Source: Myxococcota bacterium (GTDB lineage Bacteria > Myxococcota_A > UBA9160 > UBA4427). From it: 64,000 nt of DNA. Location: NCBI GenBank assembly GCA_036228265.1, contig JAZAOF010000007.1, forward strand, positions 2,473-66,472, in the 5' to 3' direction. Below the pieces are notes generated by a model. It did not search any database. It saw only the letters and a list, made by a program, of their open reading frames with translations, and was not told the origin of the DNA. Below are positions 3,442 to 64,000 of this stretch, piece by piece (within the stretch, counting starts at the first letter, position 1; the number at the start of each line of letters is the position of its first letter). The position numbers and the translations under genes were made by a program.

Positions 3442-4080
3442 TTACTCCGCGCTTGGCTTCGCCTGGGGGAGGCTCGGTGACTCGTCGGCCGATTTCCCCG
3501 GCTCGGCGATCAGGACGTCGTAGGCGGCCAGGAAACGACGCACACTCGCCGTCGCCGCCCGCGCCGAGAGAGTAGCGCCGGAAACGCCGTGGATGTCCCA
3601 TCCGAGGCGCAAATCGTCTTTCTTGGAGACCCCGAGGAACTGCTCGTACCAACGCTCCCGGGGCAGGTAACCCAGGGGTTCATAAAAGGCGAGCACGAGC
3701 ACCCGGGTGACCTCACCCGTGGGCGAGAGCACGATCATGAAGGCCTCGGGAAGGGTCCGGACCTGGTGGATCTCGATCTGGGCGTAGCCCAACACCCGCC
3801 CGTCCTTCCAACCGGTGAAGATAGTGAGCAGTTCACCCGGCAGGCGGGCGCGGGCCCCCTTCTCGATGGCGTCGACCTGCGCCGACTTCAGGATGTAGTT
3901 CGTTTCCTCGACGCGATCGGCGCCGGGAAAGGCCCGTTCCAGGGCCTCGTCCTGGGCAAAAAATACCTTCGCCCCGGCGGGGTCCGCCGAGGCGAAGGCA
4001 AGGCACGCAAGCAGCGCACCCGGGATGCCGAACCGGTGCGTCGACCTAGAAGACGTAACCGACACCCAACTGGAACTCAT
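3442..4080 (-). CDS. Exported FMN-binding-domain protein (flavinylation motif present)
   Basis: 'DIHGVSGATLSARA' matches the D..(S/T)GAT(L)(S/T) motif that ApbE-type flavin transferases modify. A signal-peptide-like 'RFGIPGALLACLAFASA' is present. The start is uncertain (ATG 4080, GTG 4065 or ATG 4125); every option overlaps the porin stop. Confidence 0.75.
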   Translation of the reverse strand: MSSSWVSVTSSRSTHRFGIPGALLACLAFASADPAGAKVFFAQDEALERAFPGADRVEETNYILKSAQVDAIEKGARARLPGELLTIFTGWKDGRVLGYAQIEIHQVRTLPEAFMIVLSPTGEVTRVLVLAFYEPLGYLPRERWYEQFLGVSKKDDLRLGWDIHGVSGATLSARAATASVRRFLAAYDVLIAEPGKSADESPSLPQAKPSAE

Positions 4081-5497
4081 GCGGTCGCTGATTGTTGCTG
4101 GCATTGCGGCCCAACGCATGAACATTGCGATAATCCGCCTTGATGACGACCTGGGGGTGGGGGTAAAACTGGAGACCCACCATGTTTACGCGGAAGTTCT
4201 GGTATCCATACTTGAAGACGCCCGAGGGCATCTTATTCTGGGTTTCCGTCCACTCGAAGCGATAAAAGGGCTCCAGACTCATTTCGGTATCCGGAAAGAT
4301 CCACGGAAGAACGTTGTAGCCGACTGAAAAATAGCCGCCCAGGCTTCGCTTGGCGATGCAGCCTTTGTAGTCATTGTTCTTCCCGTCGACCACAAGGGTG
4401 TTACACGTGCCCAAAGCGTTAGTTAGATCTCCGGCGTCGGCAACGTGCGACTGCGTGTACAGAGCCCGAAGTTTGAGACCCTGCCACTCGTACTCCGCGT
4501 GAACCTCGAAGATCGTCGTCCACACGTTCCCGAAGTCGTATCGGCCCTGACCTGAACCGCCCGACCACACCGATCCACCGACGAGAAGCCCATCGGTGGG
4601 AATCCAATCGAGACGAGCCACGATCGCCCAATCGTTGGCCTTTTTCGCGCGTCCCTTCTGACGCCCGCCCCGATAGCCGCTGGACGTGAAGCCCGAGGCA
4701 TCCATCCCGTTCATCGCGTAGAGCTTGTAGCTGAGCGTGTCGTCGAAGAAGCTTCCGAAGAGGCCTGCCCCGATCTCCCGCCAGGTCGAGGGAATGATCT
4801 GGGTTTCCGGAGAGGGCCGCGAAACCCCGTAGTACTCGGTGGGTTCGTGGATCTCGTTGATAAAACCCATGGGCGTGAGCAAGAGCCCCGTCGCGACGTT
4901 GACTCGTTCGTCGATAAAGAAATCCAACTCGGCGAATTCGACCGAAGCGGAACCGCCTCGCCCCGTGGAAGCGTGTTCGAACTCGATCTCGGTATTGATG
5001 ACGATCCAATCGTTGAACTTGTAGCCGGCATAAATCACCCCGCGGAGCCACTCCGCCACGTTGTCGCGCCCGTGCTTGTCCGCCACGAGCGCCGAGAAGT
5101 TCCCCTCGCCGTAGCCGCCAATCGAGAGCCCCTGGTCCTTGGTGTAGACCTTGGAGGCCGCAGGGCCCTTGCCATACATGCTCTTCAACCCCGTCTCCTC
5201 GGGGATGGCGACGGCTCGCTTGATGCGTTCCATCTCGCGCGCCAGGGCCCCGATGTTCTCCTGCAACTCGGGGTTCGGTGCGACGGTCACGTCTTCGGCC
5301 GCGGCCTCGGCAGCTTTTTCAACCTCTTTCTCGGCCTGCATCTTCTTGATCTCGTCCATCAACATCTGGACCTGCGATTCCAGTGCCGTGATGCGATCGG
5401 AATCATCGGCGGCGGCCGACGCGGGCGCGGCGGCAAACGCGAAGACCAGGGCCAGGCTGGCGGCCCAGGTCATGGAAAATCTCAATCGGCTCGGCAT
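4046..5497 (-). CDS. Outer-membrane porin-like beta-barrel with an N-terminal coiled coil (phosphate-porin O/P-like)
   Basis: Signal peptide 'MPSRLRFSMTWAASLALVFAFAAAPASA'. Heptad-like 'ITALESQVQMLMDEIKKMQAEKE'. Alternating aromatic/Gly beta-strand pattern. Terminal '...QLGVGYVF' with a C-terminal Phe, typical of OMPs. Confidence 0.75.
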   Translation of the reverse strand: MPSRLRFSMTWAASLALVFAFAAAPASAAADDSDRITALESQVQMLMDEIKKMQAEKEVEKAAEAAAEDVTVAPNPELQENIGALAREMERIKRAVAIPEETGLKSMYGKGPAASKVYTKDQGLSIGGYGEGNFSALVADKHGRDNVAEWLRGVIYAGYKFNDWIVINTEIEFEHASTGRGGSASVEFAELDFFIDERVNVATGLLLTPMGFINEIHEPTEYYGVSRPSPETQIIPSTWREIGAGLFGSFFDDTLSYKLYAMNGMDASGFTSSGYRGGRQKGRAKKANDWAIVARLDWIPTDGLLVGGSVWSGGSGQGRYDFGNVWTTIFEVHAEYEWQGLKLRALYTQSHVADAGDLTNALGTCNTLVVDGKNNDYKGCIAKRSLGGYFSVGYNVLPWIFPDTEMSLEPFYRFEWTETQNKMPSGVFKYGYQNFRVNMVGLQFYPHPQVVIKADYRNVHALGRNASNNQRPHEFQLGVGYVF

Positions 5498-5594
5498 CGG
5501 TACCCCTCCTCGAACGACCCGATCGCGCGCCCGTCCAACAGCATGGAGCCGCCGCGCAATACGAAATTGAAAGTCGTTTTCTTTTGGAGAAGAG

Positions 5595-5627
5595 GTTTTA
5601 ACGAAAATGAATACCAATTTCAATTGG
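5595..5627 (-). promoter_or_regulatory. Candidate sigma70 promoter with an overlapping AT-rich palindrome / Fur-box-like site upstream of the porin-FMN-4TM operon
   Basis: On the minus strand: TTGAAA (5618-5623), 17 nt, TAAAAC (5595-5600). Inverted repeat CCAATT-TC-AATTGG at 5614-5627. The 19-mer GAAAATGAATACCAATTTC (5603-5621) matches the E. coli Fur box GATAATGATAATCATTATC at 13/19 by hand count. This is a conspicuous AT-rich island in GC-rich DNA. Confidence 0.3.
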
Positions 5628-5672
5628 AATGGGCGAAGCGAGAGGGTCCTGAGATCTATCCCCTAGGGGAAA

Positions 5673-23807: not shown

Positions 23808-25610
23808 CTAGGGCGAGGGCTTCATCCAACTCGTGAGGTGCGACCCCGCGCTGCGAACCCCTCCAAAAAGAACCTTGGCGACACCGCGAACCGGCGAGAA
23901 GAAGACCTGGAGCGCCATGAACGGGATCTTCGCGACGTCGGGAAAGAAGATGGGGTCTGTAACCGTCCCCGTTACGAAAAGTGGGAAGGGTGGGAGAATG
24001 TCCACGCCTGTCTTCGGAATGGGAACCGCCGTCGTGATCAAGAGTTTCTGCATCCCGACAATCGTGAGGTCGAGCTCGGTCGACAGATCGACATGCCCGT
24101 CCAGGCCAATCTTCCCGGACCCCGTCAACGTATAGTCGCTTGTCACAAACTTGAGATCCGAAACGTGAAGGATTCCCTTCTCGATCTCGAAATTCTGCTC
24201 GAGATATTCGATCTCCGTCGGATCCACCAGCCGACCCTGGCTCGACGGACGCAAGACCGACGGCACAACTGAGAGAAGTCCGCCCCCAACGGCCCCGATC
24301 ACGCTCGCCGAAGGGATCACTCCTCCTTCCAGCCGCATGTGACCTCGCCCCTGGGTGTTCCGAATCGAATCGTTTTCGTCGGCGTAGGAACCTTCAAATT
24401 CGAACTCGGTCTCCACGGTGTCAAAACCGACCTCGGGAGTCGCCCCGGTGAGGTCGGTTAGCAGGGCGGTCATCGAAACGTTCTCCGCTTCGACCTTTCC
24501 GCGGTAGGCGACCCGGTCGTCGAAACGAAAGGATCCGGCGTAATCCAGCGTGCCCCCGTAGAAGGCCAGCGTGACATCGGAAAATCGCACCCCCCCGCTC
24601 TCGTACTGCATCTTCAGCGATAAATCGCTCGCCTTCAGATTCTTCCATCGAACGCTCGACGCGCGAAGATTTCCAGAGGGAACCGAAAAATCGGACTCTG
24701 CGACACCAAAGTCCAGGTCGAAACGCAGCGGAGCCTCCAACTCGAAGCCAATCCATTCAAAGCTTGCGCCCGAAGCCAGTCTCAACTGGCCCGTCCCCTG
24801 AAAATCTCCGAGTACGCTTCCATCGATGTGCGCCGTCACGCCGATGAGTCCGTTCACATTCTCCGGCGCATCTCCAGGAAGCAGATAATAGAGAACCGTC
24901 GAGGCGGGAAGCCCCGTGCCCTTCAGATCTGCATTGACCGCCCCGGCGAGCACGCTCGGATCACCGAGATTTCGATGGATGGTGCCCTCGAACCGGACCT
25001 CCCCCTGGCCCAGGACAGCGGCGGCTTCGAAGTCGGCATCCTCTCCGGGCTGGGAGGACTCGACGTCGACGGTGACGTCTTCAAAGAGAACCTCCCGTTT
25101 CGAGCCGTCAACCTGGACGTCGACGAAAAGAAAGGAACTGTCCGTTCCCTGTATGGCGGGCAGGTGGCCGGGGGACGATGGCGTCAATTCGTCGGCTTCT
25201 TCTTCGGCGGTCGAAGCGAAACGGCCGACGAAATCCGAGAAGGAAAGCGTTCCGTCCGAAGCACGGCGGAGAACCAGGTGAGCCCCGGAGAAGGAGACCA
25301 ATTCGGGTTCTACCTTTCCGTCGAGCAGAGATGGAAAGTCGAGAACCAGGGAAATCTGGTCGACGGTCAACGCTTCCTGCGAATCCGTCGAATCGTCTCC
25401 GGCAATCCGGATGCCCGATAGGGAGACCCCCGGCCCCGGCCAGAAAACGATCCCGACGCGCTCAAAGCGCACTCCGGGGCCGACGATCCGGGCCGCTTCC
25501 TCGGTGAGGAAGGCCTGGACCGCGGGCAGTTGACTCGCCCCCCAGAGTGCCACCGCCAGGAAGACGAGGGTCCCCAGGAGCGCGGACGCGACACGAAAGA
25601 CGGCCTTCAA
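23808..25610 (-). CDS. AsmA family protein
   Basis: N-terminal anchor 'ALLGTLVFLAVALWG', then a long beta-rich Gly/Asp/Ser body. The AsmA-type C-terminus has 'TGSGKIGLDG.VDL'. Confidence 0.8.
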   Translation of the reverse strand: MKAVFRVASALLGTLVFLAVALWGASQLPAVQAFLTEEAARIVGPGVRFERVGIVFWPGPGVSLSGIRIAGDDSTDSQEALTVDQISLVLDFPSLLDGKVEPELVSFSGAHLVLRRASDGTLSFSDFVGRFASTAEEEADELTPSSPGHLPAIQGTDSSFLFVDVQVDGSKREVLFEDVTVDVESSQPGEDADFEAAAVLGQGEVRFEGTIHRNLGDPSVLAGAVNADLKGTGLPASTVLYYLLPGDAPENVNGLIGVTAHIDGSVLGDFQGTGQLRLASGASFEWIGFELEAPLRFDLDFGVAESDFSVPSGNLRASSVRWKNLKASDLSLKMQYESGGVRFSDVTLAFYGGTLDYAGSFRFDDRVAYRGKVEAENVSMTALLTDLTGATPEVGFDTVETEFEFEGSYADENDSIRNTQGRGHMRLEGGVIPSASVIGAVGGGLLSVVPSVLRPSSQGRLVDPTEIEYLEQNFEIEKGILHVSDLKFVTSDYTLTGSGKIGLDGHVDLSTELDLTIVGMQKLLITTAVPIPKTGVDILPPFPLFVTGTVTDPIFFPDVAKIPFMALQVFFSPVRGVAKVLFGGVRSAGSHLTSWMKPSP

Positions 25611-25754
25611 TCCGCGTACCGACGAAATGTCGTGCTACTCGGCGAGAGCATCGGGGTCGCTCGATCGTGGGATCGCGGATGGGTCCTGGACCCGGATCTC
25701 ATGGGATAGCCTCCACAGAACACGTCGAAGACTACCACGGCACCCGTGGCTCGG

Positions 25755-29847: not shown

Positions 29848-30638
29848 CGCCCCCGGAATACCGGGTCTCTTTTTTCGAGAAGGGCCTTGATGCCTTCCTG
29901 GGCGTCCTCGGTTTCGACCGTCCTCGATTGCGCGTGGGCTTCCATTTCGGCCGCGCCCCGCGGATCCCACCCGAGGCCTCGGTAGAGAGAGCGCTTGGTC
30001 CAGCGAACCGCCAGCGGCGCAGCCGCCGCGATCTCGGCCGCAAGTTCGCGCCCCTTTCCCAAAACAGCGTCCCCCGGGACGGCGTAGTTCGCAAGGCCGG
30101 CCTGCGCCGCCTCCTCACCGCTGACCAATTTCCCGGTGAAAAGCCACTCGGCCGCCCGGGGAATCCCGACGAGTCTCGGCAGGAAATACGTCGTGGCCAT
30201 TCCCGGGTGGAGGCCCAACCGCGTAAAATTCGCTCCGTAGCGCGCTTCCTGGTTCGCAATTCGCAGATCGCAGACAAGGCCGAGGCCCAACCCTCCTCCA
30301 ACGGCATGGCCATGCATTGCGGCGATGACCGGGACCTCGATTTCGAGAATTCCGAGGAAAGGTTCGTACATCGCCATCGAACGCTCATTCGGCGCTCGGT
30401 AACCCTCGTGATCTCCCCCCCGCTGAAGCCCGGACTTGAAGTCCGCTCCTGCGCAGAAACTCCGCCCCACTCCCGTGATGATGACGCAACGCACTTCGCG
30501 GTCATTGCGGATCCGTTCCAGGGCATCTTGGAGACCCGAAAAGACGTCTTCGGTCATGCTATTGCGATTTTCGGGGCGATTCAGGGTCACTTCTGCAACC
30601 CCATCCCGCGCTTCGTAGAGAACGGCCGCGTCGCTCAC
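29844..30638 (-). CDS. Enoyl-CoA hydratase (crotonase family)
   Basis: 'VAEVTLNRPENRNSM', 'VIITGVGRSFCAGADF', 'PVIAAMHGHAVGGGLGLGLVCDLRIA' and 'E..R.F.EKR.P.F' are textbook motifs. Confidence 0.9.
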   Translation of the reverse strand: MSDAAVLYEARDGVAEVTLNRPENRNSMTEDVFSGLQDALERIRNDREVRCVIITGVGRSFCAGADFKSGLQRGGDHEGYRAPNERSMAMYEPFLGILEIEVPVIAAMHGHAVGGGLGLGLVCDLRIANQEARYGANFTRLGLHPGMATTYFLPRLVGIPRAAEWLFTGKLVSGEEAAQAGLANYAVPGDAVLGKGRELAAEIAAAAPLAVRWTKRSLYRGLGWDPRGAAEMEAHAQSRTVETEDAQEGIKALLEKRDPVFRGR

Positions 30639-31558
30639 GAGTCCGTCCCTGCGCGCGCCTGGAGCAGCGCGTACGTCCGCTCGAAACCCCCCGGTTCCAC
30701 CGGGATGATCGCTGCATTGAAGTCGGTGACCCCAATATCGCGCAGGCGATCGAGTTCCGACTCCACGAAGCTCTCGTCGCCACAGATCGCAACCTCTCCC
30801 GGTCCCGCAACCCCTTCTCGATCGAGCATCGCGCGGTACGAAGGCAGCATTCCGTACATCGAAAGGGCTTTCGAGATCGCCTCCCGGGCGGTCCCGGGAT
30901 CCTGGGCGACGAGAACGGGGAGCCCACAGACGACCCGGGGTGCTGGCTTCGCCGCTTCTCTCGCCGCTTTTCCAAGACGCGGGATGATGTGGTCTTCAAG
31001 GGTTCGGGGACCGGTCATCCAGGTGATGGTTCCATCGCCAGCGCTTCCGGCCAACTGCAGCATGCGGGGGCCGAGAGCCGCAACGATCACGGGAACCGAC
31101 GACGCGCCCGGAACCTGCAGCGGCGCTGTCACGCGGTACAGTTCGCCCTGGTGGTTGACATCCTCGCCGCGCAAGAGGGTGGCGAGTACTTCCAGGTATT
31201 CTCCCATGTGGCGCGCCGGTTTCTCGTACGAAAGACCCAGCATGTCCTCGATCACGATCTTGTGGGAGAGCCCGATCCCCAGGGCAAAGCGACCTCCCGC
31301 AGCCGCAGAGACGGTCAGCGCTTGCTGGGCCATGGCGTGGGGATGCCTCGGGAATGTCGGAACCACGGCGGTGCCCAGTTCGATGCGGGAAGTTTCGCGG
31401 CCGGCAATCGCCAGCGCCGTCATCGCGTCGAAGCCCATGATGTGGGGGGCCCAGAGCGTATGAAAACCGTCGGCTTCGGCCTTTTTCGCTTCGGCTACGA
31501 CGGCGTCCAATCCCGCTTCGGGATTCTGGACTGCCGTGGACATGACTCCGATTTTCAT
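30635..31558 (-). CDS. LLM-class (luciferase-like, probably F420/flavin-dependent) oxidoreductase
   Basis: Starts MKIGVMS after AGGAGG. 'GFHTLWAPH', 'ELGTAVVPTFPRHP' and 'GRFALGIGLSH' fit the LLM pattern. 4-nt overlap with the downstream ECH gene. Confidence 0.85.
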   Translation of the reverse strand: MKIGVMSTAVQNPEAGLDAVVAEAKKAEADGFHTLWAPHIMGFDAMTALAIAGRETSRIELGTAVVPTFPRHPHAMAQQALTVSAAAGGRFALGIGLSHKIVIEDMLGLSYEKPARHMGEYLEVLATLLRGEDVNHQGELYRVTAPLQVPGASSVPVIVAALGPRMLQLAGSAGDGTITWMTGPRTLEDHIIPRLGKAAREAAKPAPRVVCGLPVLVAQDPGTAREAISKALSMYGMLPSYRAMLDREGVAGPGEVAICGDESFVESELDRLRDIGVTDFNAAIIPVEPGGFERTYALLQARAGTDS

Positions 31559-31611
31559 CTCGACCTCCTGCGCGCGCGGCTGGCGCGACTTCTTTCCAAG
31601 GGGGGCCCGCG

Positions 31612-32727
31612 ATGATACACGGATCACGCGGTCGGCAACGACTTCTCTCCGGGGCCCTCATCCTGGCTATCGGCTGGACGGTTTCCCCTGTCCGAGCCGA
31701 GGGACCGGACCCGTCCCTGCTCGAAGCCCCGCACTTCGAGAACGGGCGCTTCTTCAACCCGTGGGAAAAGAATCCGAAGAGCGCCTGGGATCTCTTCCGC
31801 TGGAAGATCTTCACTCCAAACCCCTACGACAAGACCCGCACTCCGGAAATTCCCCGGGTAGAGAACAACGGTCTCTACCTCTCCGGATCGTCGCCGCACC
31901 CCAGCGCAACCTGGGTCGGTCACTCGACCTTTGCGGTACACGACGGAGACGATGTCTTCCTGACGGACCCCCACTTCAGCAAGCGTGCGCTTCTGCCCCG
32001 CCGGATCACGCCTCCGGGAATTCCGATCGAGTCGATTCCCGGGGACGCCTTCGCCGTAATCTCTCACAACCACTACGACCACCTCGATGCGGACACCGTG
32101 GATACGCTTCCCGAAACGGTCCAATGGTTCGTTCCGCTGGGGCTCGCGGAATGGTTTCGCGATCGCGGACGCCCGAACGTGGTCGAGCTCGACTGGTGGG
32201 AAAGCGCCCACCGCGGGCGCTGGACGATCACCTGTCTCCCCTCGCAACACTGGTCTCAACGCATCGAGCAGGGCACGAACCGCTCGCTCTGGTGCTCCTG
32301 GCTCCTCGACTCGGGCGAGACCCGGTATTACTTCGCGGGGGACACCGGCTACTTCGCCGGATTCGCCGAGTTCGGTCGACGTTTTGCGCCCATCGACGTC
32401 GCGATGCTTCCCATCGGGGCCTACGAACCCCGATGGATGATGCAATACAACCACATGGACCCCACCGAAGCCTTTCTCGCGTTTCGCGACCTCGGGGCCC
32501 GCCAGATGCTTCCAATGCACTGGGGGACTTTTGACCTCACGGACGAGCCCGCCGACCTCCCCCCCCAGGTCCTCGGGGAGATCGTCGAAGCCGCGGACGG
32601 GGTCGACGGCCGAGTCCACATTCCAGCGATCGGAGAGCGCGTCGAACTGCTGCGTTTTCCCCGAACTGAATCCCGGGGATCGGGTGCTAGCCTTTCGAAC
32701 GAGCATGACCCCGAAAACACGCCCTAG
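31612..32727 (+). CDS. Exported MBL-fold metallo-hydrolase (NAPE-PLD-like)
   Basis: Signal peptide. 'ATWVGHSTF', 'FLTDPHFS', 'ISHNHYDHLD' (HxHxDH) and 'LPIGAYEPRW....HM.P.EA' motifs. Confidence 0.85.
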   Translation: MIHGSRGRQRLLSGALILAIGWTVSPVRAEGPDPSLLEAPHFENGRFFNPWEKNPKSAWDLFRWKIFTPNPYDKTRTPEIPRVENNGLYLSGSSPHPSATWVGHSTFAVHDGDDVFLTDPHFSKRALLPRRITPPGIPIESIPGDAFAVISHNHYDHLDADTVDTLPETVQWFVPLGLAEWFRDRGRPNVVELDWWESAHRGRWTITCLPSQHWSQRIEQGTNRSLWCSWLLDSGETRYYFAGDTGYFAGFAEFGRRFAPIDVAMLPIGAYEPRWMMQYNHMDPTEAFLAFRDLGARQMLPMHWGTFDLTDEPADLPPQVLGEIVEAADGVDGRVHIPAIGERVELLRFPRTESRGSGASLSNEHDPENTP

Positions 32728-34168
32728 CCTTCCCGCTCTCCCCCCCGGTCTCGTAGCTTTCGTAAAACGCGACTGTCCTACCTGTATGCTGGTCGAACCC
32801 GTCCTCGCCCAACTCGCCCAGCAGGGGCGGCTCACGGTGTTTACCCAGGACGACCCCGGGTTTCCCGCCGACCTGGAACCCCGGGACGACACCTCTCTCG
32901 AGCATTCGTGGCACCACGCGATCGAGGCCGTTCCCACGCTACTCCGCATCGACTCCGAGGGTGCCGAAGAAAGTCGCGTCATCGGCTGGCACCGAGGCGA
33001 GTGGGAGGCTCTCTCCGGAGCGCGCGGACTGGGACCGGGCCTGCCCGACCAACGACCGGGATGCGGCTCTCTCAGTGTCGACCCCCTTTTGGCGCCAGAC
33101 CTCGCCATTCGTTTCGGAGAAGCCAAACGCGCCCTGGCTTCCCGCCGCATTGAACTCGGAAGTCGCGAAGACGAATTTGAAGCCATGTTCGAGCGAGGTT
33201 GGTCCGATGGGCTCCCCCTGGTACCGCCCACCGAACGGCGCGTCATGGCCATGCTGGAGGGGACTTCGCGAAACCCCGGAGAAATCGTCGCCACGGTGCC
33301 TCCCGATCTCGCCGATTGCACCGTGGAGAAAGTCGCGGTCAACGCCGTAATGGCCGGATGCCGCCCGGAGTATCTCCCTGTCGTGATCGCAGCGGTGGAA
33401 GCCGCGTGTACGGACGAATTCAACATCCACGGACTGCTCGCCACGACCATGCCCGTAGCTCCGGTCCTCGTCGTGAACGGACCGATCCGCCGCACGGCGG
33501 GCATGAACGCCGGCATCAATGCGCTGGGCCAGGGGAACAGGGCCAACAGTACGATCGGTCGAGCCCTCCAACTGGTGGTACGAAACTGCGGAGGGGGACG
33601 CCCCGGCGAGGTGGACCGCGCCACGCTGGGAAGCCCGGCCAAGCTCTCCTTCTGTTTTCCCGAAGACGAAGAAGGTTCACCCTGGGATCCTCTCTCGGTC
33701 GGCCGGGGAATCGACCCGGGGCGGAGTGCCGTCACGCTATTTCCCGGAGAAGCACCACGAAACGTGATCGACCAGATCTCTCGCGACCCCGAGTCATTGG
33801 CGCGAACCTTTGCGGTCAACCTCCGAACCGTCCACCACCCCAAAATGGTCCTGGGCTTCGACGCCCTGCTCGTCGTCGGCCCGGAGCACGCGCGCGTTTT
33901 TTCCGATGCGGGGTGGAGCCGGGACCGACTCGTAAGCCGATTGCACGAACTGCTACAGATTCCCGGCAAGGAACTAATCCGGGGAGCCGGCGGAATCGCA
34001 GAAGGCATGCCCGAAACCGTCTCGGAACTCACCCTGCCAAAATTTCGCCCGGGCGGTATCCTCGTGGCTCATTGTGGCGGGCGCGCGGGGCTCTTCTCGG
34101 CGATCATCGGAGGGTGGCTGACAGGCTCCGAGGGGAGCCAACCCGTGACGCAGGAGATCCAGTCGTGA
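32705..34168 (+). CDS. Thioredoxin-fold (CPTC) domain fused to a ~380-aa domain of unknown function
   Basis: N-terminal 'LVAFVKRDCPTCMLVEPVL...AVPTLLRI' is a thioredoxin fold with CxxC. The remainder ('WSDGLPLVPPTERRV', 'VNAVMAGCRPEYLPVV', 'NALGQGNRANSTIGRAL') is conserved-looking, but I cannot assign a family. Its stop overlaps the next gene's GTG (GTGA). Confidence 0.75.
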   Translation: MTPKTRPSLPALPPGLVAFVKRDCPTCMLVEPVLAQLAQQGRLTVFTQDDPGFPADLEPRDDTSLEHSWHHAIEAVPTLLRIDSEGAEESRVIGWHRGEWEALSGARGLGPGLPDQRPGCGSLSVDPLLAPDLAIRFGEAKRALASRRIELGSREDEFEAMFERGWSDGLPLVPPTERRVMAMLEGTSRNPGEIVATVPPDLADCTVEKVAVNAVMAGCRPEYLPVVIAAVEAACTDEFNIHGLLATTMPVAPVLVVNGPIRRTAGMNAGINALGQGNRANSTIGRALQLVVRNCGGGRPGEVDRATLGSPAKLSFCFPEDEEGSPWDPLSVGRGIDPGRSAVTLFPGEAPRNVIDQISRDPESLARTFAVNLRTVHHPKMVLGFDALLVVGPEHARVFSDAGWSRDRLVSRLHELLQIPGKELIRGAGGIAEGMPETVSELTLPKFRPGGILVAHCGGRAGLFSAIIGGWLTGSEGSQPVTQEIQS

Positions 34169-34722
34169 ACGACGAACGCACCCTGCTCGATCCGACCCAC
34201 GAGTTCTCCCCGGCCCAACGCGCCGCACTGGAACGACCGTCGAGCCTCGAGGGCCTTTGCGTAGGGCTACTCGACATCAAGAAAGCCCGGGGGGACCTGT
34301 TCCTCGACCGGGTCGAGAAGCATCTCCGCGAACAAGGCGCATCGGTCCGACGCTACACGAAACCGACTTTTACCAAGCCCGCCCCGCTCGACCTCCGCAA
34401 GAAAATCGCCGAGGAATGTTCCGCGGTAGTCGAAGCCCTCGCCGATTGAGGCAGCTGCACGTCGTGCAGTGTGCACGACATGGCGAATCTCGAGGGGATG
34501 GGCGTTCCGGGACTCTACGTCGCCACCGTGGAGTTCATCGACGCCGCCCAGGGCCAGGCACGCGCCATCGGGTGCAACCCGCCCGGCGTCTTCGTCGAAC
34601 ACCCCATCCAGGACCGCACCGATGAGGAAATGGACGAGATCGCCCGATCCGCCCTTGAAGAGATCGTCTCGAAACTCACCCGGACGCCCTCGGACCGCCC
34701 AGGGGAAACCGGAAGTCCTTGA
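34165..34722 (+). CDS. UGSC-motif selenoprotein candidate; TGA 34447-34449 read as selenocysteine
   Basis: GTG 34165 follows a GGAG. The ORF-track pieces ending at 34449 and starting at 34471 are in the same frame, separated only by TGA and 7 sense codons. Read-through gives '...VVEALAD-U-GSCTSCSVHDMANLEG...', about 185 aa. Hairpins lie just after the TGA. Confidence 0.75.
34455..34479 (+). promoter_or_regulatory. SECIS-like stem-loop(s) immediately 3' of the in-frame TGA
   Basis: Two alternative hairpins: CTGCAC-GTC-GTGCAG (34455-34469) and GTCGTGCA-GTG-TGCACGAC (34461-34479, 8 bp). The latter starts 11 nt after the UGA and has a G/U-containing apical loop, the position expected for a bacterial SECIS. 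Confidence 0.5.
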
Positions 34723-34796
34723 ATCCTGCCCGGCTCGACGCCGGGACAAAAACGTGGATCATCCATGAGTCCGGTCTTTCGGGGGGGAGACCCGTC

Positions 34797-36569
34797 ATGC
34801 CCAGAGCCTCAACCAGGAAGTCGAAGCGGACTCCGGCTCGCCGTGCGAGCCGAGCAGCCGCGAAAACCACGAGCCGGGGCAAGGCCTCCGCGCGCAAGAA
34901 GGCCGCGGCCAGGAAAAGCGGCGCGAAGAAGAAAAGCGTTCGTCGCAAGCCCGCGGCCAAGAAGAAATCGACGCGAGCGCCCAGGAAATCTGCCACTCGA
35001 AACCCGTCGCCGGAAAGCAGCGCCGATGAACTCGCGACGAAGCAGCGGGACATCTCGGTTTCCGAGTTCTTTGCCAAGAACCGGCACCTGCTCGGGTTCG
35101 ACAACCCCTCAAAAGCGCTCCTGACCACCGTCAAGGAGGGCGTCGACAACGCGCTCGACGCCTGTGAAGAAGCGCGCATCGTCCCCGACATCCGCGTTGA
35201 AATCGAGCAACTCGACGAGAAGCGCTTTCGCGTGGTCATCCAGGACAATGGACCCGGCATCGTCAAGAAGGAGGTCCCGAAAATTTTCGGTCGCCTTCTC
35301 TACGGTTCGAAGTTCCACCGCTTGCGCCAGAGTCGCGGTCAACAAGGAATCGGAATCAGCGCAGCGGGAATGTACGGCCTTCTCACAACGGGGCGACCCC
35401 TTCGAGTAACGACGCGAACCGGGCGGCGAAAGCCCGCTCACCGTTTCGACCTGGTCATCGACACGCAGAAGAACGAGCCGCGTGTCAAGCGAGAACAAGA
35501 AGTCAAGTGGCCTGTCCACCATGGAACTCGCGTCGAGATCGAACTGGCGGGGGCCTACCGGGGGGGGCAGCACTCGGTCGACAACTACATTCGGCAAATT
35601 GCCCTGGCCAACCCCCATGCTCGTCTCACCTACGAACCACCGAAGGAGGACAGCCAGGGCGAGAGCGTCTTCGATCGGGTCACCAAGGTGCTTCCTCCCG
35701 ATGCCGTCGAAATCAAGCCGCACCCCTACGGCGTCGAACTCGGCGTTCTGATGCAGATGTTCCGAGATACGGGCGCTCGAAACGTCCGAACCTGCCTTCA
35801 AAAAGACTTCTCCCGCGTTTCCGCCGCGACGGCCAAGAAAATCTGTGATCTCGCCAAGGTCAGCGAAAAGCGCCGCCCTTCCCAGGTCACCCGAAACGAA
35901 GCAGAAGCCCTGCACAAGGCTATTCAGAAGACGAAGATCATGAACCCGCCGACGGACTGCATTGCACCCATCGGCGAAAAATTGATCACCGCCGCGTTGA
36001 AGGCCGAGATCGACGCCGATTTCTATACCGCCGCCACGAGAAAACCCACGGTGTACCGGGGCAATCCCTTCCTCATCGAGGTCGGAGTCGCCTACGGCGG
36101 ACGACTGGCCGCCGAAGCTCCGGCCATCCTCTACCGCTATGCCAACCGGGTCCCCCTCCAGTACCAGCAGGGAGCCTGTGCGATTACGAAAGCCGTCATC
36201 GGGACCAATTGGAAGTCCTATCAACTTCAACAGCCACGGGGAGCCCTGCCGGTAGGCCCGGCGCTACTGATGGTCCACATCGCAAGCGTCTGGGTTCCCT
36301 TCACGTCGGAAAGCAAGGAAGCCATCGCGCACTACCCGGATATCGTCAAGGAAATTCGCTTCGGGCTCCAGGAGTGCGGGCGACGCATGGCGATTCACGT
36401 TCGCAAGCAGCGCCGCCAGGCCGACGAACTCAAGAAACGGGCCTACATCGAGCAATACATCCCGCAGGTGGCCATCGGCCTCGAGGAAATTCTTGGCTTC
36501 GGTGAGCGCGAACGGGCGAAGGTGATCAAGAACCTGAGCGGCGTCCTCGAGCGCAGCCGAAAAATGTAA
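34797..36569 (+). CDS. top6B: DNA topoisomerase VI subunit B with a basic N-terminal extension
   Basis: GHKL motifs 'VKEGVDNALDA', 'DNGPGI' and 'GQQGIGISAAG'. 'SVSEFFAKNRHLLGFDNP' at the start of the Bergerat fold. Transducer-like C-terminus. The first ~80 residues are Lys/Arg/Ala-rich. ATG follows GGGAGA. Confidence 0.9.
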   Translation: MPRASTRKSKRTPARRASRAAAKTTSRGKASARKKAAARKSGAKKKSVRRKPAAKKKSTRAPRKSATRNPSPESSADELATKQRDISVSEFFAKNRHLLGFDNPSKALLTTVKEGVDNALDACEEARIVPDIRVEIEQLDEKRFRVVIQDNGPGIVKKEVPKIFGRLLYGSKFHRLRQSRGQQGIGISAAGMYGLLTTGRPLRVTTRTGRRKPAHRFDLVIDTQKNEPRVKREQEVKWPVHHGTRVEIELAGAYRGGQHSVDNYIRQIALANPHARLTYEPPKEDSQGESVFDRVTKVLPPDAVEIKPHPYGVELGVLMQMFRDTGARNVRTCLQKDFSRVSAATAKKICDLAKVSEKRRPSQVTRNEAEALHKAIQKTKIMNPPTDCIAPIGEKLITAALKAEIDADFYTAATRKPTVYRGNPFLIEVGVAYGGRLAAEAPAILYRYANRVPLQYQQGACAITKAVIGTNWKSYQLQQPRGALPVGPALLMVHIASVWVPFTSESKEAIAHYPDIVKEIRFGLQECGRRMAIHVRKQRRQADELKKRAYIEQYIPQVAIGLEEILGFGERERAKVIKNLSGVLERSRKM

Positions 36570-36580
36570 CCGGAGTCAAA

Positions 36581-37852
36581 GTGGCGGCACGCAAAAAGAC
36601 AGGGACGCGCAAGAAAGCTCGCGCTGCGAAGAAGGCGCCGAAGAAGAAGCCGGGGCGAAAGAAGGCCGCTTCCCGCAAGAGCACGACGCGGAAGAAGAAG
36701 GCCACTCGAAAGAAGGCGGCCAGTGCGACGGGGCGCCGCAAGGCGAAACCGAGCCGTCGAGATTCTCTCACGGTGAAACTGATCGACGATACGGCGAGTA
36801 CGGTCCATCGCTCCATCAACCGACTGGACAAACCCGATCTCGAATTTCCGATCCGTTCCCTCGGAAACGTGACCTACTCCCAGAAGAAGGGCTACTTCGA
36901 GATCGGAAAACAACGCAAAACACGGACCCTGACCGTCAACACCGTAAAGAGTTTTGCCCAGACCCTTCGGATGATGGGGCTTTCGAAGGAGCTGGTTGAA
37001 ACGACCGATTTCGCGACAAAACGAGACGCCTACTACCAGAGCAAGAACTGGGAAGAAGCCCGCTTCGACGATCAGAGCGAATCGGACGCAGTGATGGACG
37101 ATATCGAGGCGATGTTCTCGATGAACGGGGTGTCCCGGGAAGAACTGAGATTCGTTCCCGACGAACACGGCGGTGCCGTAGCGGGGAACCTCACCGTGAT
37201 CGACCGCGACCGGGGCACCGGGCGCGTCGAGCGAATCGACTGTACGCGTTTCGGATCGGGCGCGTATTCCATCCCATCATCCGTTGAACCCCTCTCCTTT
37301 GAGACCAAGGCGAAGTTCATTCTCGCCATCGAGACCGGGGGCGTCTTCCAGAGGCTTCAGAGTCATCGATTCTGGGAAAGCTCAAACTGCATCCTGGTGT
37401 CCCTGGCTGGGGTTCCCACGCGAGCCACCCGGCGCTTCATCCGAAAACTTTCCGACGAGTGCAAGATTCCCGTTTATGCCTTTGTAGACTGCGACCCCTA
37501 TGGAATCTCGAATATCTACCGGACACTCAAGGTAGGCTCCGGAAATGCGGCCCACCTCTCCCAGTTCTTCTGTGTTCCGCAGACCCGCTTTCTTGGCGTG
37601 ACGCCCCAGGACATCCTCGACTACGATCTCCCGACACATCCACTTCAAGAGGTGGACATCAAGCGAGCCAAGGATGCCCTCAAGAACGACCCCTTCTTCA
37701 AGACCCACAAGCCCTGGCGCAAGGCCCTCGAGCAACTTCTGAAGATGGGGGTTCGCGCCGAACAACAAGCCCTGGCGAAATGGGGTCTCAACTACGTCAT
37801 CGACGAGTACCTTCCGCGAAAGCTCGCGAACCGAAAGGCCTTCCTACCCTGA
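36581..37852 (+). CDS. top6A: DNA topoisomerase VI subunit A (Spo11 family) with a basic N-terminal extension
   Basis: Catalytic-Tyr segment 'TKRDAYYQS'. Toprim 'ILAIETGGVF' and 'AFVDCDPYGISI'. 'LGVTPQD' and 'VRAEQQAL' near the C-terminus. The first ~58 residues are Lys/Arg/Ala-rich. GTG lies 5 nt after GGAG and 12 nt after the top6B stop. Confidence 0.9.
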   Translation: MAARKKTGTRKKARAAKKAPKKKPGRKKAASRKSTTRKKKATRKKAASATGRRKAKPSRRDSLTVKLIDDTASTVHRSINRLDKPDLEFPIRSLGNVTYSQKKGYFEIGKQRKTRTLTVNTVKSFAQTLRMMGLSKELVETTDFATKRDAYYQSKNWEEARFDDQSESDAVMDDIEAMFSMNGVSREELRFVPDEHGGAVAGNLTVIDRDRGTGRVERIDCTRFGSGAYSIPSSVEPLSFETKAKFILAIETGGVFQRLQSHRFWESSNCILVSLAGVPTRATRRFIRKLSDECKIPVYAFVDCDPYGISNIYRTLKVGSGNAAHLSQFFCVPQTRFLGVTPQDILDYDLPTHPLQEVDIKRAKDALKNDPFFKTHKPWRKALEQLLKMGVRAEQQALAKWGLNYVIDEYLPRKLANRKAFLP

Positions 37853-61871: not shown

Positions 61872-61948
61872 TGGCGCGCCCGGCACGACTCGAACGTGCG
61901 ACCCTCAGCTCCGCAAGCTGATGCTCTATCCAACTGAGCTACGGGCGC
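61872..61948 (-). tRNA. tRNA-Arg (anticodon GCG), CCA encoded
   Basis: Reverse complement folds by hand into a cloverleaf: GCGCCCG-TA-GCTC-AGTTGGATA-GAGC-A-TCAGC-TTGCGGA-GCTGA-GGGTC-GCACG-TTCGAGT-CGTGC-CGGGCGC-G-CCA. A20 and C35 fit Arg identity. Confidence 0.9.
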
Positions 61949-62050
61949 CTGTCTTTCGGGGGGCGCGAGTCTAGCGCCCCTCGGCCCATCCTTCACGGCG
62001 ATCGACGAGACCACGACAGTCCCCGGATCCGGCGATACACTGCAGCCCCG

Positions 62051-62926
62051 ATGAGCGCACGCAGCCGGACCCGGGGCTTACCCCTTGCCCTTCTCCTTGG
62101 GGTCGCGTGCCTTTTGGCCTCTCCCCCGGCCCTCGCAGAAGACGAACTCCTCCCCGAGGCCTCGGAGGTCGAACAGGCCCTACCCCAGGGAGGCTCGTTG
62201 ACGGGTCGCGAGATCTACGAGCGCTTCCTGAAGAACCGGAATCGCGAAAATTTTCAACAACTCCGCGTGATCTCGAGAGATCCCGGCGGAAGCGAACAGA
62301 TCACGCGCTTCAACACGAGCGTCAGCGACTTTAGAGACGAAAACGACAAGGCGACCGACGGCATCCTTGCGAAGATGCTGGTTCAGGTCTCGCATCCTTT
62401 CGACATGAGGCATACGGCATACCTGATGATCGCAAAGGATCCGGGACCCGATGACGAATTCGCCTACCAGCCCAGCCAGCGCAGGGTTCGTCGGGTAGAT
62501 CTCAAAAACACCACCCTGCTCGGAACCGACTACACCTTCAACGACATTGCGTTCCAGGCCATCGAGGATGCGGACTACCTCCGGCTTCCGGACGAGACCC
62601 TCGACGGCGTACCCGTTTACGTCGTGGAAACCAACGTCAAGGAAACCATCGACGTAAGGTACCACCGAACGAGAATGTACATGGAGAAGGAGCACTACAT
62701 TCCGCTCCGAGTCCGCTATTGGGATGACTACGGTGTAGAAGTGAAGGAGATGACTGCAGCGAGAAAATCGATTCGTTCCTTCGGTGAACTCTGGATTGCG
62801 ACGGAAACGACCATGCGAGATCTCCGCCAAAACACGCAATCGACCCTCTTCGTCGAAGACGTGGACACGGAGCCCAACTTTCACCCGAGACTCTTCAGCG
62901 TGACGCTACTCTACAAGGGAAAGTAG
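62051..62926 (+). CDS. Outer-membrane lipoprotein-sorting (LolA-like) protein
   Basis: Signal peptide 'LPLALLLGVACLLASPPALA'. 'GREIYERFLKNR', 'YQPSQRRVRRV' and 'LLGTDYTFNDI' resemble the LolA_like family that usually accompanies MMPL/RND exporters. Confidence 0.75.
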   Translation: MSARSRTRGLPLALLLGVACLLASPPALAEDELLPEASEVEQALPQGGSLTGREIYERFLKNRNRENFQQLRVISRDPGGSEQITRFNTSVSDFRDENDKATDGILAKMLVQVSHPFDMRHTAYLMIAKDPGPDDEFAYQPSQRRVRRVDLKNTTLLGTDYTFNDIAFQAIEDADYLRLPDETLDGVPVYVVETNVKETIDVRYHRTRMYMEKEHYIPLRVRYWDDYGVEVKEMTAARKSIRSFGELWIATETTMRDLRQNTQSTLFVEDVDTEPNFHPRLFSVTLLYKGK

Positions 62927-62932
62927 TTCTCA

Positions 62933-64000
62933 CTACGCCCGCATACGCACCAGGAGTGCCGGTAGCAGCAGGAGATCCGTCACCAGGCAGAGACCCATGG
63001 TGAGCGCGGTGAGATACCCGAACTCGCGCAGGGTCGCGAACCCCGATACGAGCATTACCAAGAAACCTACGACCAGCATGACGCTGGTCATGAAGACCGG
63101 CCTCCCCACCTGCCGGATGCATCCAGAAGCCGCTTCTTCGGGGGTGGCGCCGCGGGTTCGGCGATCTCGGTAAGCCACGAGGAAGTGCATCGTGTCGTCG
63201 ATTGCAATTCCGAGGGCGATGCTTCCGATCAAACTCGTGGGGAGTGAGAGTGGGGCGATCCCCAACCCGAGTATTCCGAAGAAGACCACCACGGGGATGA
63301 TGTTCGGAACCATCGCGATCAGGCCTGTGCGGATCGAGCGAAATACCACGCAGATCAGGACCAGGATACTGATCGCCGCAAAGCCCACCTGGGTTGCCTG
63401 GTTTTCCGCAATACCGTCTGCACTGCGGTTCAGCAGGATGGAATTTCCCGTCACAGCAGTGGTAAATCCGTCCGGCAGATCCGCATTGGCCAGAACTCCG
63501 TGAATTCGCTCCTCCAATGCCCGTATCTTCGCGGAGCCCGCTTCGCCGGTTCGGACGATTAGGTTGATACGGCTGTGGTTCGACGTAGAAAAACGACGCA
63601 GCTTGGGCTTCGGGAGGAGAAACGTTGCTTCGGCGATCCCTTCCCGGGTATCCGGTATGACGTACTGTGAATCGTCGTCTTCCATCATTGCGCGATTGAC
63701 CCGGCGGATGAAATCCACCGAAGAAAGTACTTCCGTAACGCCCGGAAGGGCTTCGAGTCGCGACTGGAGGTCGGCGATCTTGTTCAGCGTCTCGGGCTTT
63801 CGAAATGCCCCCTCGTCGTGTCCGGCGATCGGCCAGTAGACCGGGATGACTCCGGTGAGTAGACGGTTGACCGCCAGAAAATCCTGGCGCACCGGCGAAT
63901 CTCGGACAAAGAACGTGATGACATCGGTGTCGATGGAGATACGAGGAATCGTGAAAGCGGACCCCGCGACCAATATCCCCGCGATCGCCAGGATGCTGCC
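62933..64000 (-). CDS. MMPL/RND-superfamily transporter, C-terminal half; 5' part lies outside the window
   Basis: The frame stays open to nt 64000. A periplasmic loop is followed by six TM segments. 'LGIAIDDTMHFL', 'GRPVFMTSVMLVVGF' and 'LLLLPALL' are typical of the MMPL/SSD C-terminal repeat. Confidence 0.85.
   Translation of the reverse strand, partial: GSILAIAGILVAGSAFTIPRISIDTDVITFFVRDSPVRQDFLAVNRLLTGVIPVYWPIAGHDEGAFRKPETLNKIADLQSRLEALPGVTEVLSSVDFIRRVNRAMMEDDDSQYVIPDTREGIAEATFLLPKPKLRRFSTSNHSRINLIVRTGEAGSAKIRALEERIHGVLANADLPDGFTTAVTGNSILLNRSADGIAENQATQVGFAAISILVLICVVFRSIRTGLIAMVPNIIPVVVFFGILGLGIAPLSLPTSLIGSIALGIAIDDTMHFLVAYRDRRTRGATPEEAASGCIRQVGRPVFMTSVMLVVGFLVMLVSGFATLREFGYLTALTMGLCLVTDLLLLPALLVRMRA

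Follow-up and report, generated by a model that had tools for sequence, protein, structure and literature searches.

Positions 34797-37852 of a 64,000-nucleotide stretch of contig JAZAOF010000007.1 from an uncultured Myxococcota bacterium (hereafter the window, that is, the whole 64-kb stretch analysed) raise the question of whether a bacterium can harbor a complete, working DNA topoisomerase VI (topo VI) of the archaeal type and, if so, where the enzyme comes from and what it does. The explanation that fits the evidence best as a whole, and that is very probably correct, is a B-A operon for a working topo VI (type IIB, A2B2), a likely chromosome decatenase that stems from one old archaeal transfer and carries tails added in bacteria. 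The sequence itself bears out the domains, the catalytic residues, the gene layout, the codon adaptation, the place in the clade and the tails with their predicted disorder; activity, assembly of the complex, the role in the cell and the function of the tails are inferred. Two open reading frames (ORFs), top6B and top6A, fill this interval exactly, in agreement with a preliminary description of the sequence that had reported both subunits as complete, and have matches, far beyond chance, to topo VI families and to archaeal solved structures (E-values of 1e-113 to 1e-150). The two genes lie on the same strand and are separated by 11 nt from stop to start. Their products are identical, including length, to GenBank proteins MED5260864.1, recorded as "DNA topoisomerase VI subunit B", and MED5260865.1, named "topoisomerase IV subunit A" by the Prokaryotic Genome Annotation Pipeline (PGAP), both encoded on a 66,799-bp contig of a Myxococcota metagenome-assembled genome (MAG). 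Both proteins have existing GenBank annotations, and bacterial topo VI has been published before, also from Myxococcota; the only unusual feature of this topo VI pair is the lysine-rich tails of the two subunits.

In Top6B, a Pfam search identifies HATPase_c and Topo-VIb_trans (PF09239, 196 bits, amino acids (aa) 384-546), and the protein scores above the NCBIfam equivalog cut-offs of NF003218 (680.8 bits; cut-off 274) and TIGR01052 (533 bits; cut-off 380.7). A search of solved structures detects Top6B of Methanosarcina mazei (2q2e_B) with an E-value of 5e-150 and 47.6% identity over 489 aa, and the alignment is unbroken across M. mazei residues 235-495; the domain boundaries given in the table rely on the M. 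mazei domain limits (PMC13040014). Residue mapping shows that the three ATPase boxes noted in the preliminary description are intact, namely the N box (E114 and N118, aligned with M. mazei E44 and N48), G1 (D150NGPGI) and G2 (G181QQGIG). The switch lysine K507 aligns with M. mazei K435, and the motif WKSY is found at residues 472-475; in the helix-two-turn-helix (H2TH) domain, the DNA contact K380 is conserved, and the side chain at R340 is still basic. Compared with M. mazei topo VI (2q2e; cryo-EM entries 9o0g and 9o8p), the domain order, the ATPase residues, the WKxY motif and the switch lysine are the same, whereas the M. mazei enzyme possesses an Ig-like C-terminal domain and lacks basic tails. 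The Ig-like domain is not found in the Top6B of the window, which ends 23 residues past the last transducer residue aligned with M. mazei and has no further Pfam domain.

Top6A contains TP6A_N (56.9 bits, aa 123-189), Topo_VI_alpha and TOP6A-Spo11_Toprim (207.5 bits), all three above the Pfam gathering thresholds. The best solved structure is Top6A of Methanocaldococcus jannaschii (1d3y), with an E-value of 3e-113 and 58.5% identity over 301 aa (residues 69-369). The catalytic segments listed in the preliminary description are all present and align with known catalytic residues: R148 and Y152 of KRDAYYQS with M. jannaschii R99 and Y103 (the Tyr152 codon occupies positions 37034-37036), E251 of AIETGG with E197, and D303 and D305 of DCDPYG with D249 and D251. 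In addition, R392-A-E394-Q-Q-A397 fits the T2BI box, R/KxExxA/S (PMC7671362). All five catalytic residues and the R392-x-E394 core of this box are invariant in an alignment of 44 bacterial and archaeal sequences. The AlphaFold2 (AF2) model of Top6A has a mean predicted local distance difference test score (pLDDT) of 82.8, and a Foldseek search with this model again identifies 1d3y as the best match (E 1e-37), followed by M. mazei cryo-EM entries of 2026.

Both subunits begin with polybasic tails, which were measured by direct inspection, independent gene calls and lysine counts. The Top6B tail (aa 1-75) comprises 15 lysines, 14 arginines, 16 alanines and a single acidic residue (net charge +28), and the Top6A tail (aa 1-60) has 19 lysines, 11 arginines, 13 alanines and no acidic residues (net charge +30); across the six frames of the window, these are the sole lysine-rich stretches. 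With no in-frame start codon among codons 2-100 of top6B, translation has to include the tail of this subunit. The start of the Top6A tail is directly preceded by a GGAG site and agrees with the start called independently in each of the 120 close relatives ("MAARKK..."); residues 1-51 of this subunit have pLDDT values below 50 in the AF2 model and are predicted to be disordered. The tails are present in 120 of the 120 close bacterial relatives and absent from the archaeal homologs compared. Alignment with archaeal Top6B begins only at residues 76-83 of the window protein, and the median number of residues before the Top6A anchor is 64 in the 120 bacterial relatives (41% lysine plus arginine, net charge +23.5), against about 10 in Methanococcales (including M. 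jannaschii) and about 6 in DPANN archaea. Tail length differs widely among lineages, and most of the Top6B representatives at 50% identity, a diverse set without taxonomy that was used solely for the presence of the extension, lack an N-terminal extension.

No description of tails on topo VI subunits was found in the searchable literature, and they go unmentioned in the survey of bacterial topo VI by Allen & Maxwell 2024 (PMC11302465). The closest parallel is the topoisomerase I (TopA) of Streptomyces and other actinobacteria, in which lysine repeats stabilize the enzyme-DNA complex and raise processivity (PMC5714199). As in the window, this is a disordered, lysine-repeat appendage on a topoisomerase; unlike in the window, the enzyme is an unrelated type IA topoisomerase and the tail is located at the C-terminus of a single subunit, so that the comparison is an analogy without homology. 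By this analogy, the tails of topo VI probably raise the DNA residence of an otherwise weakly binding, distributive enzyme. An A2B2 tetramer would carry four such tails with a net charge of about +116, a bacterial addition that would hold the enzyme on DNA.

Many related bacterial Top6B proteins possess a different kind of N-terminus. They start with a short motif, typically M-x-x-Q-x-S-L-F or Q-E-S-F-A-F, and a basic linker whose length varies between 24 and 90 aa comes next. A strict form of this motif occurs in 25 of 60 related Top6B loci, compared with 0.20 expected from shuffles, and a looser form in 28 of the 60 (1.13 expected); counted as a terminal Qxx[LMF]F-type peptide, it is found in 39 of the 60. 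In 17 loci, the hydrophobic core of the motif (L, or the first F of F-A-F) lies exactly six residues past an ATG, and only one of 77 Top6A tails carries the motif. Examples include the loci L005 (upstream of 8385), L040, L057, L059, L063, L067, L073 and L076 and the proteins P0272, P0302 and P0395. The QxSLF motif resembles the bacterial beta-clamp-binding consensus, QL[SD]LF. Literature searches returned no link between topo VI and the clamp. The motif is absent from the N-terminus of the window Top6B (MPRASTRKSKR...) and from the frame upstream of it, and is also missing in the sub-clade to which the window belongs (L001, L004, L008, L009, L015, L017, L019 and L068). The close relatives that lack the motif have higher lysine counts in both tails; because the loci lack phylogenetic independence, a single evolutionary event might explain this pattern. 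A tentative possibility is that, after the transfer, bacterial topo VI gained bacterial-specific N-terminal tethers: in most of the sampled Top6B proteins, a clamp-like QxSLF motif that would recruit the decatenase to the replisome and, in the Myxococcota sub-clade of the window, much longer polylysine tails on both subunits that would tether the enzyme directly to DNA.

If the bacterial enzyme works as the archaeal one does, ATP binding would dimerize the two GHKL domains of Top6B and trap the transfer duplex, and the Top6A dimer would transiently cut both strands of the gate duplex via Tyr152 and the Toprim Mg2+ site E251/D303/D305. The transfer duplex would then pass through the break, and ATP hydrolysis, sensed by the transducer switch lysine K507, would reset the enzyme, which would thus decatenate and relax DNA without supercoiling it. 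What topo VI does in bacteria is described as an open question (PMC11302465). The most likely physiological role is the unlinking of replicated chromosomes, which is the job of topo IV in most bacteria, given that the M. mazei enzyme prefers decatenation and relaxes DNA slowly and in a highly distributive manner (PMC8837201), that topo IV is missing in topo VI-bearing bacteria outside Pseudomonadota and Terrabacteria, and that M. mazei topo VI complements a temperature-sensitive parE mutant of Escherichia coli, which is reported as unpublished data (both PMC11302465). The 64-kb window contains no gyrase or topo IV gene.

An active topo VI could instead be specialized beside topo IV, for example on the compacted nucleoid in development or stress, with histone H1-like tails that would target the enzyme to particular chromatin states. 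The variable length of the tails among lineages would suit such a role, as would the match of the tails of two relatives (P0078 and P0097) to the Pfam histone H1-like family HC2 (PF07382). Nevertheless, the three Myxococcota families sampled in PMC11302465 are without topo IV, and no conserved neighborhood with developmental or stress genes was found around the operon, the flanks of which are shared only with an independent deep-ocean Myxococcota MAG (locus L001). Specialization beside topo IV is therefore unlikely, albeit the strongest competitor of the replicative decatenase.

Several observations weigh against a working decatenase operon of long standing. The searchable literature yielded no activity data for any member of this bacterial clade, and the absence of topo IV from this MAG is an extrapolation from PMC11302465. 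Top6A scores under the cut-offs of all six NCBIfam PRK04342 sub-models, which are narrow and curated (the best score is 471 bits against 675). Several of the basic residues through which M. mazei Top6B contacts DNA are lost: the KGRR loop is RGGQ at residues 255-258, and Q335, A532, I533 and D543 occupy the places of basic residues, several of them transducer lysines. A DNA-tethering function of the tails would fit this partial loss. A promoter scan detected no sigma-70-like promoter near the operon. Finally, the tetranucleotide (4-mer) profile of 34797-37852 lies at the 99th percentile of stretches of the same size, an outlier, measured over the whole region, that probably reflects the AAG-rich tails and amino-acid content. 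A terminator scan found terminator-like sites to be rarer than in shuffles.

Relatives of this operon are widespread in bacteria. The preliminary description called topo VI only sporadically reported in bacteria, which understates its distribution: a scan of one genome per species yields at least 228 species-representative genomes with confirmed relatives, and at least 8000 clusters in the protein database match with E-values below 1e-20. The best 80 of the at least 228 genome matches are all bacterial records, from Myxococcota, Acidobacteriota, Planctomycetota, Hydrogenedentes, Eisenbacteria and the cultured Rohdeia mirabilis. Bacterial topo VI has been known since at least Forterre et al. 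2007, as cited in PMC11302465, and that survey lists 17 bacterial families with topo VI, including the Myxococcota families Polyangiaceae, Anaeromyxobacteraceae and Vulgatibacteraceae. The public data thus reveal a bacterial topo VI clade far larger than the 17 published families, in Myxococcota, Acidobacteriota, Planctomycetota and others.

In a neighbor-joining tree of Top6A (48 sequences, 356 columns, 100 bootstraps, with the bacterial sequences of PMC11302465 left out), the sampled bacterial proteins are monophyletic in 100 of 100 bootstraps, and the nearest archaea are DPANN, then Methanococcales. Mean Top6A identity to the window protein follows the same order, with 63% for DPANN-like sequences (up to 67%), 54.5% for Methanococcales and 34.5% for M. 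mazei; for Top6B, identity is 53-55% with DPANN and, as noted above, lower with M. mazei. A search started with the M. jannaschii protein finds, after Methanococcales, that the next-best matches with organism names (about 58-63% identical) all come from DPANN (Woesearchaeota and Nanoarchaeota) or unclassified archaea. The genes top6B and top6A are adjacent, in this order, in 50 of 63 related loci and also in two DPANN loci of Woesearchaeota/Nanoarchaeota (L081 and L083), the closest archaeal relatives of both subunits. By contrast with the window, top6A is not located beside top6B in Methanocaldococcus lauensis, the protein of which is 98% identical to that of M. jannaschii. The two DPANN operons are found in an archaeal context (aS21, EF1, RIO1 and a PNO1-like KH protein) and, unlike the window, encode proteins with short N-termini; their Top6B proteins (L081 4236-6011 and L083 4284-6029) have long acidic Glu/Asp tails at the C-terminus, opposite in both charge and end to the basic N-terminal tails of bacteria.

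Allen & Maxwell placed the two bacterial topo VI clusters beside Methanococcales and DPANN/Euryarchaeota (PMC11302465), and the shared archaeal neighbors suggest that the window operon belongs to one of them. The enzymes of that set (from Anaeromyxobacter dehalogenans, Vulgatibacter incomptus, Pajaroellobacter abortibovis, Pirellula staleyi and Bdellovibrio bacteriovorus), compared here without an alignment of the 17 species of that paper, share with the window the two subunits, a Top6B without the Ig-like C-terminal domain, Methanococcales/DPANN neighbors and Gram-negative hosts including Myxococcota; the window copy differs in coming from an uncultured MAG and in its basic tails of 75 and 60 aa. 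A single old transfer of the B-A operon from an archaeon related to DPANN or Methanococcales into bacteria, followed by full adaptation to the host, would account for this pattern.

Variation in gene content and protein length is seen among the relatives. Ten Acidobacteriota loci (L021, L023, L026, L029-L032, L034, L035 and L037) encode a Top6A about 74-76% identical to that of the window and no Top6B in the DNA examined, which in several cases spans the full 10 kb on each side, and in some Planctomycetota loci top6B lies 3-6 kb 5' of top6A. Many Top6B representatives (P0262, P0265, P0266, P0276, P0280, P0310, P0318 and others) have lengths of 1000-1570 aa and align with the query in two or three separate stretches, which would fit inteins or other insertions in the ATPase region.

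Another reading is that archaeal DNA was misjoined into a bacterial contig or that the transfer is so recent that the genes are still unadapted to the host. In its favor are the closest solved structures, which are archaeal, the outlying 4-mer profile and the GC content of the topo VI region, 0.58-0.61 compared with about 0.63-0.65 in the flanks. Nevertheless, the GC deficit lies at codon positions 1 and 2 and points to a protein sequence that is conserved and rich in lysine, not to foreign codon use. The GC content at third codon positions (GC3) is 0.746 in top6B and 0.728 in top6A, compared with 0.743 +/- 0.026 in 34 flanking ORFs, which bears out the match reported in the preliminary description, and a codon index trained on the flanks (0.725 and 0.703, respectively) also falls within the distribution of these ORFs (0.711 +/- 0.033). 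The independent MAG L001 has the gene order AsmA, SIR2, F420-oxidoreductase, metallo-beta-lactamase-fold protein, unknown 545-aa protein, UGSC, Top6B, Top6A and MFS, and the genes shared with the window encode proteins 69-90% identical, except for AsmA (37%). The neighbors are also bacterial as claimed: AsmA, LolA_like, MMPL and a tRNA-Arg are confirmed by Pfam and tRNA checks, although the outer-membrane porin is a weak match under its cut-off. Native codon use and synteny with L001 speak against a chimera and a recent transfer; together with the bacterial origin of the best genome matches, the monophyly of the bacterial Top6A proteins apart from archaea and the tails that archaeal homologs lack, they make a misjoin or recent transfer very improbable and uphold the earlier view of an established acquisition.

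Least probable of all, to the point of being negligible, is a Top6-like nuclease of a defense or DNA-breaking system (Wadjet JetD-like, Gabija-like or Spo11-like) rather than a topoisomerase: Top6A shares the Toprim fold with JetD and has a PADLOC JetD match of 24.8 bits and a Spo11 match at E 3.4e-4, but the JetD score is tiny beside the Toprim match of Top6A, the adjoining gene encodes an entire Top6B whose ATPase boxes and switch lysine are intact, more than half of the aligned Top6A residues are identical to those of a true topo VI subunit (1d3y), and JetABC, Mks and Gaj genes are missing from the neighborhood, the neighbors being without any PADLOC match. Topo VIII and Mini-A, recognized by one fused B-A chain or a solitary A-like protein on a mobile element, were considered and rejected, given two separate full-length genes, flanks in which no mobile-element genes were detected, and best matches to true topo VI.

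The name under which Top6A is recorded has consequences of its own. The NCBIfam families NF003332-NF003337 and PGAP call this subunit "DNA topoisomerase IV subunit A", and this label could make name-based surveys score topo IV as falsely present in genomes that encode topo VI. For a topo VI operon acquired from archaea, the tails, along with the clamp-like motif in sister lineages, suggest testable ways in which an archaeal decatenase was fitted to the chromosome biology of bacteria.

Table. Positions of the topo VI operon, its domains and the neighboring features in the window
Feature	Position	Strand	Description and basis
Shine-Dalgarno-like GGGGGGGAG	34781-34789	+	G-rich; 7 nt 5' of the Top6B ATG; by sequence reading
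top6B	34797-36569	+	590 aa plus stop; ATG 34797, TAA 36567-36569; topo VI ATPase subunit
Top6B N-terminal polybasic tail	34797-35021	+	aa 1-75; composition count
Top6B GHKL/Bergerat ATPase domain	35022-35714	+	aa 76-306; limits mapped from M. mazei residues 1-234
Top6B H2TH domain	35715-35945	+	aa 307-383; unbroken alignment to M. mazei residues 235-311
Top6B transducer domain	35946-36566	+	aa 384-590; Pfam PF09239 and residue mapping
GGAG ribosome-binding site	36572-36575	+	inside the top6B/top6A gap; by sequence reading
top6A	36581-37852	+	423 aa plus stop; GTG start 36581; topo VI DNA-cleaving subunit
Top6A N-terminal polybasic tail	36581-36760	+	aa 1-60; composition count, AF2 disorder
Top6A N-terminal helix and winged-helix/5Y-CAP domain	36761-37162	+	aa 61-194; Pfam TP6A_N
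Top6A all-beta linker domain	37163-37312	+	aa 195-244; Pfam PF20768, 58.5 bits
Top6A Toprim domain	37316-37825	+	aa 246-415; Pfam PF21180, 207.5 bits
OMP beta-barrel	4046-5662	-	Pfam, weak: 23.4 bits, under the 28.7 cut-off
AsmA	23808-25634	-	Pfam
F420-dependent LLM-class oxidoreductase	30635-31657	-	TIGR03564, 344 bits (cut-off 234)
545-aa ORF	32531-34168	+	
UGSC-family selenoprotein gene	34166-34722	+	directly 5' of top6B; in-frame TGA 34447-34449 (...EALAD-U-GSCTSCSV...)
tRNA-Arg(GCG)	61872-61948	-	sole tRNA
LolA_like	61922-62926	+	Pfam
MMPL	62933-64000	-	Pfam

Among the other genes of the window are a histidine kinase and a thrombospondin-repeat/DUF4215 protein, and the F420-dependent oxidoreductase is conserved in L001. 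Searches of Pfam, NCBIfam and PADLOC find no match for the 545-aa ORF, which is 76% conserved in L001; it overlaps the start of the UGSC gene by 3 nt and may encode an operon partner of the selenoprotein. The in-frame stop upstream of top6B is the selenocysteine codon of the UGSC gene, which ORF finders split in two. The read-through product matches Pfam UGSC (138.8 bits) and NCBIfam NF041046 (142.8 bits; cut-off 125), and the TGA and the bases that follow it are conserved in L001. A hairpin after this TGA (-19.9 kcal/mol, z -1.6) may be a selenocysteine insertion sequence (SECIS) element.

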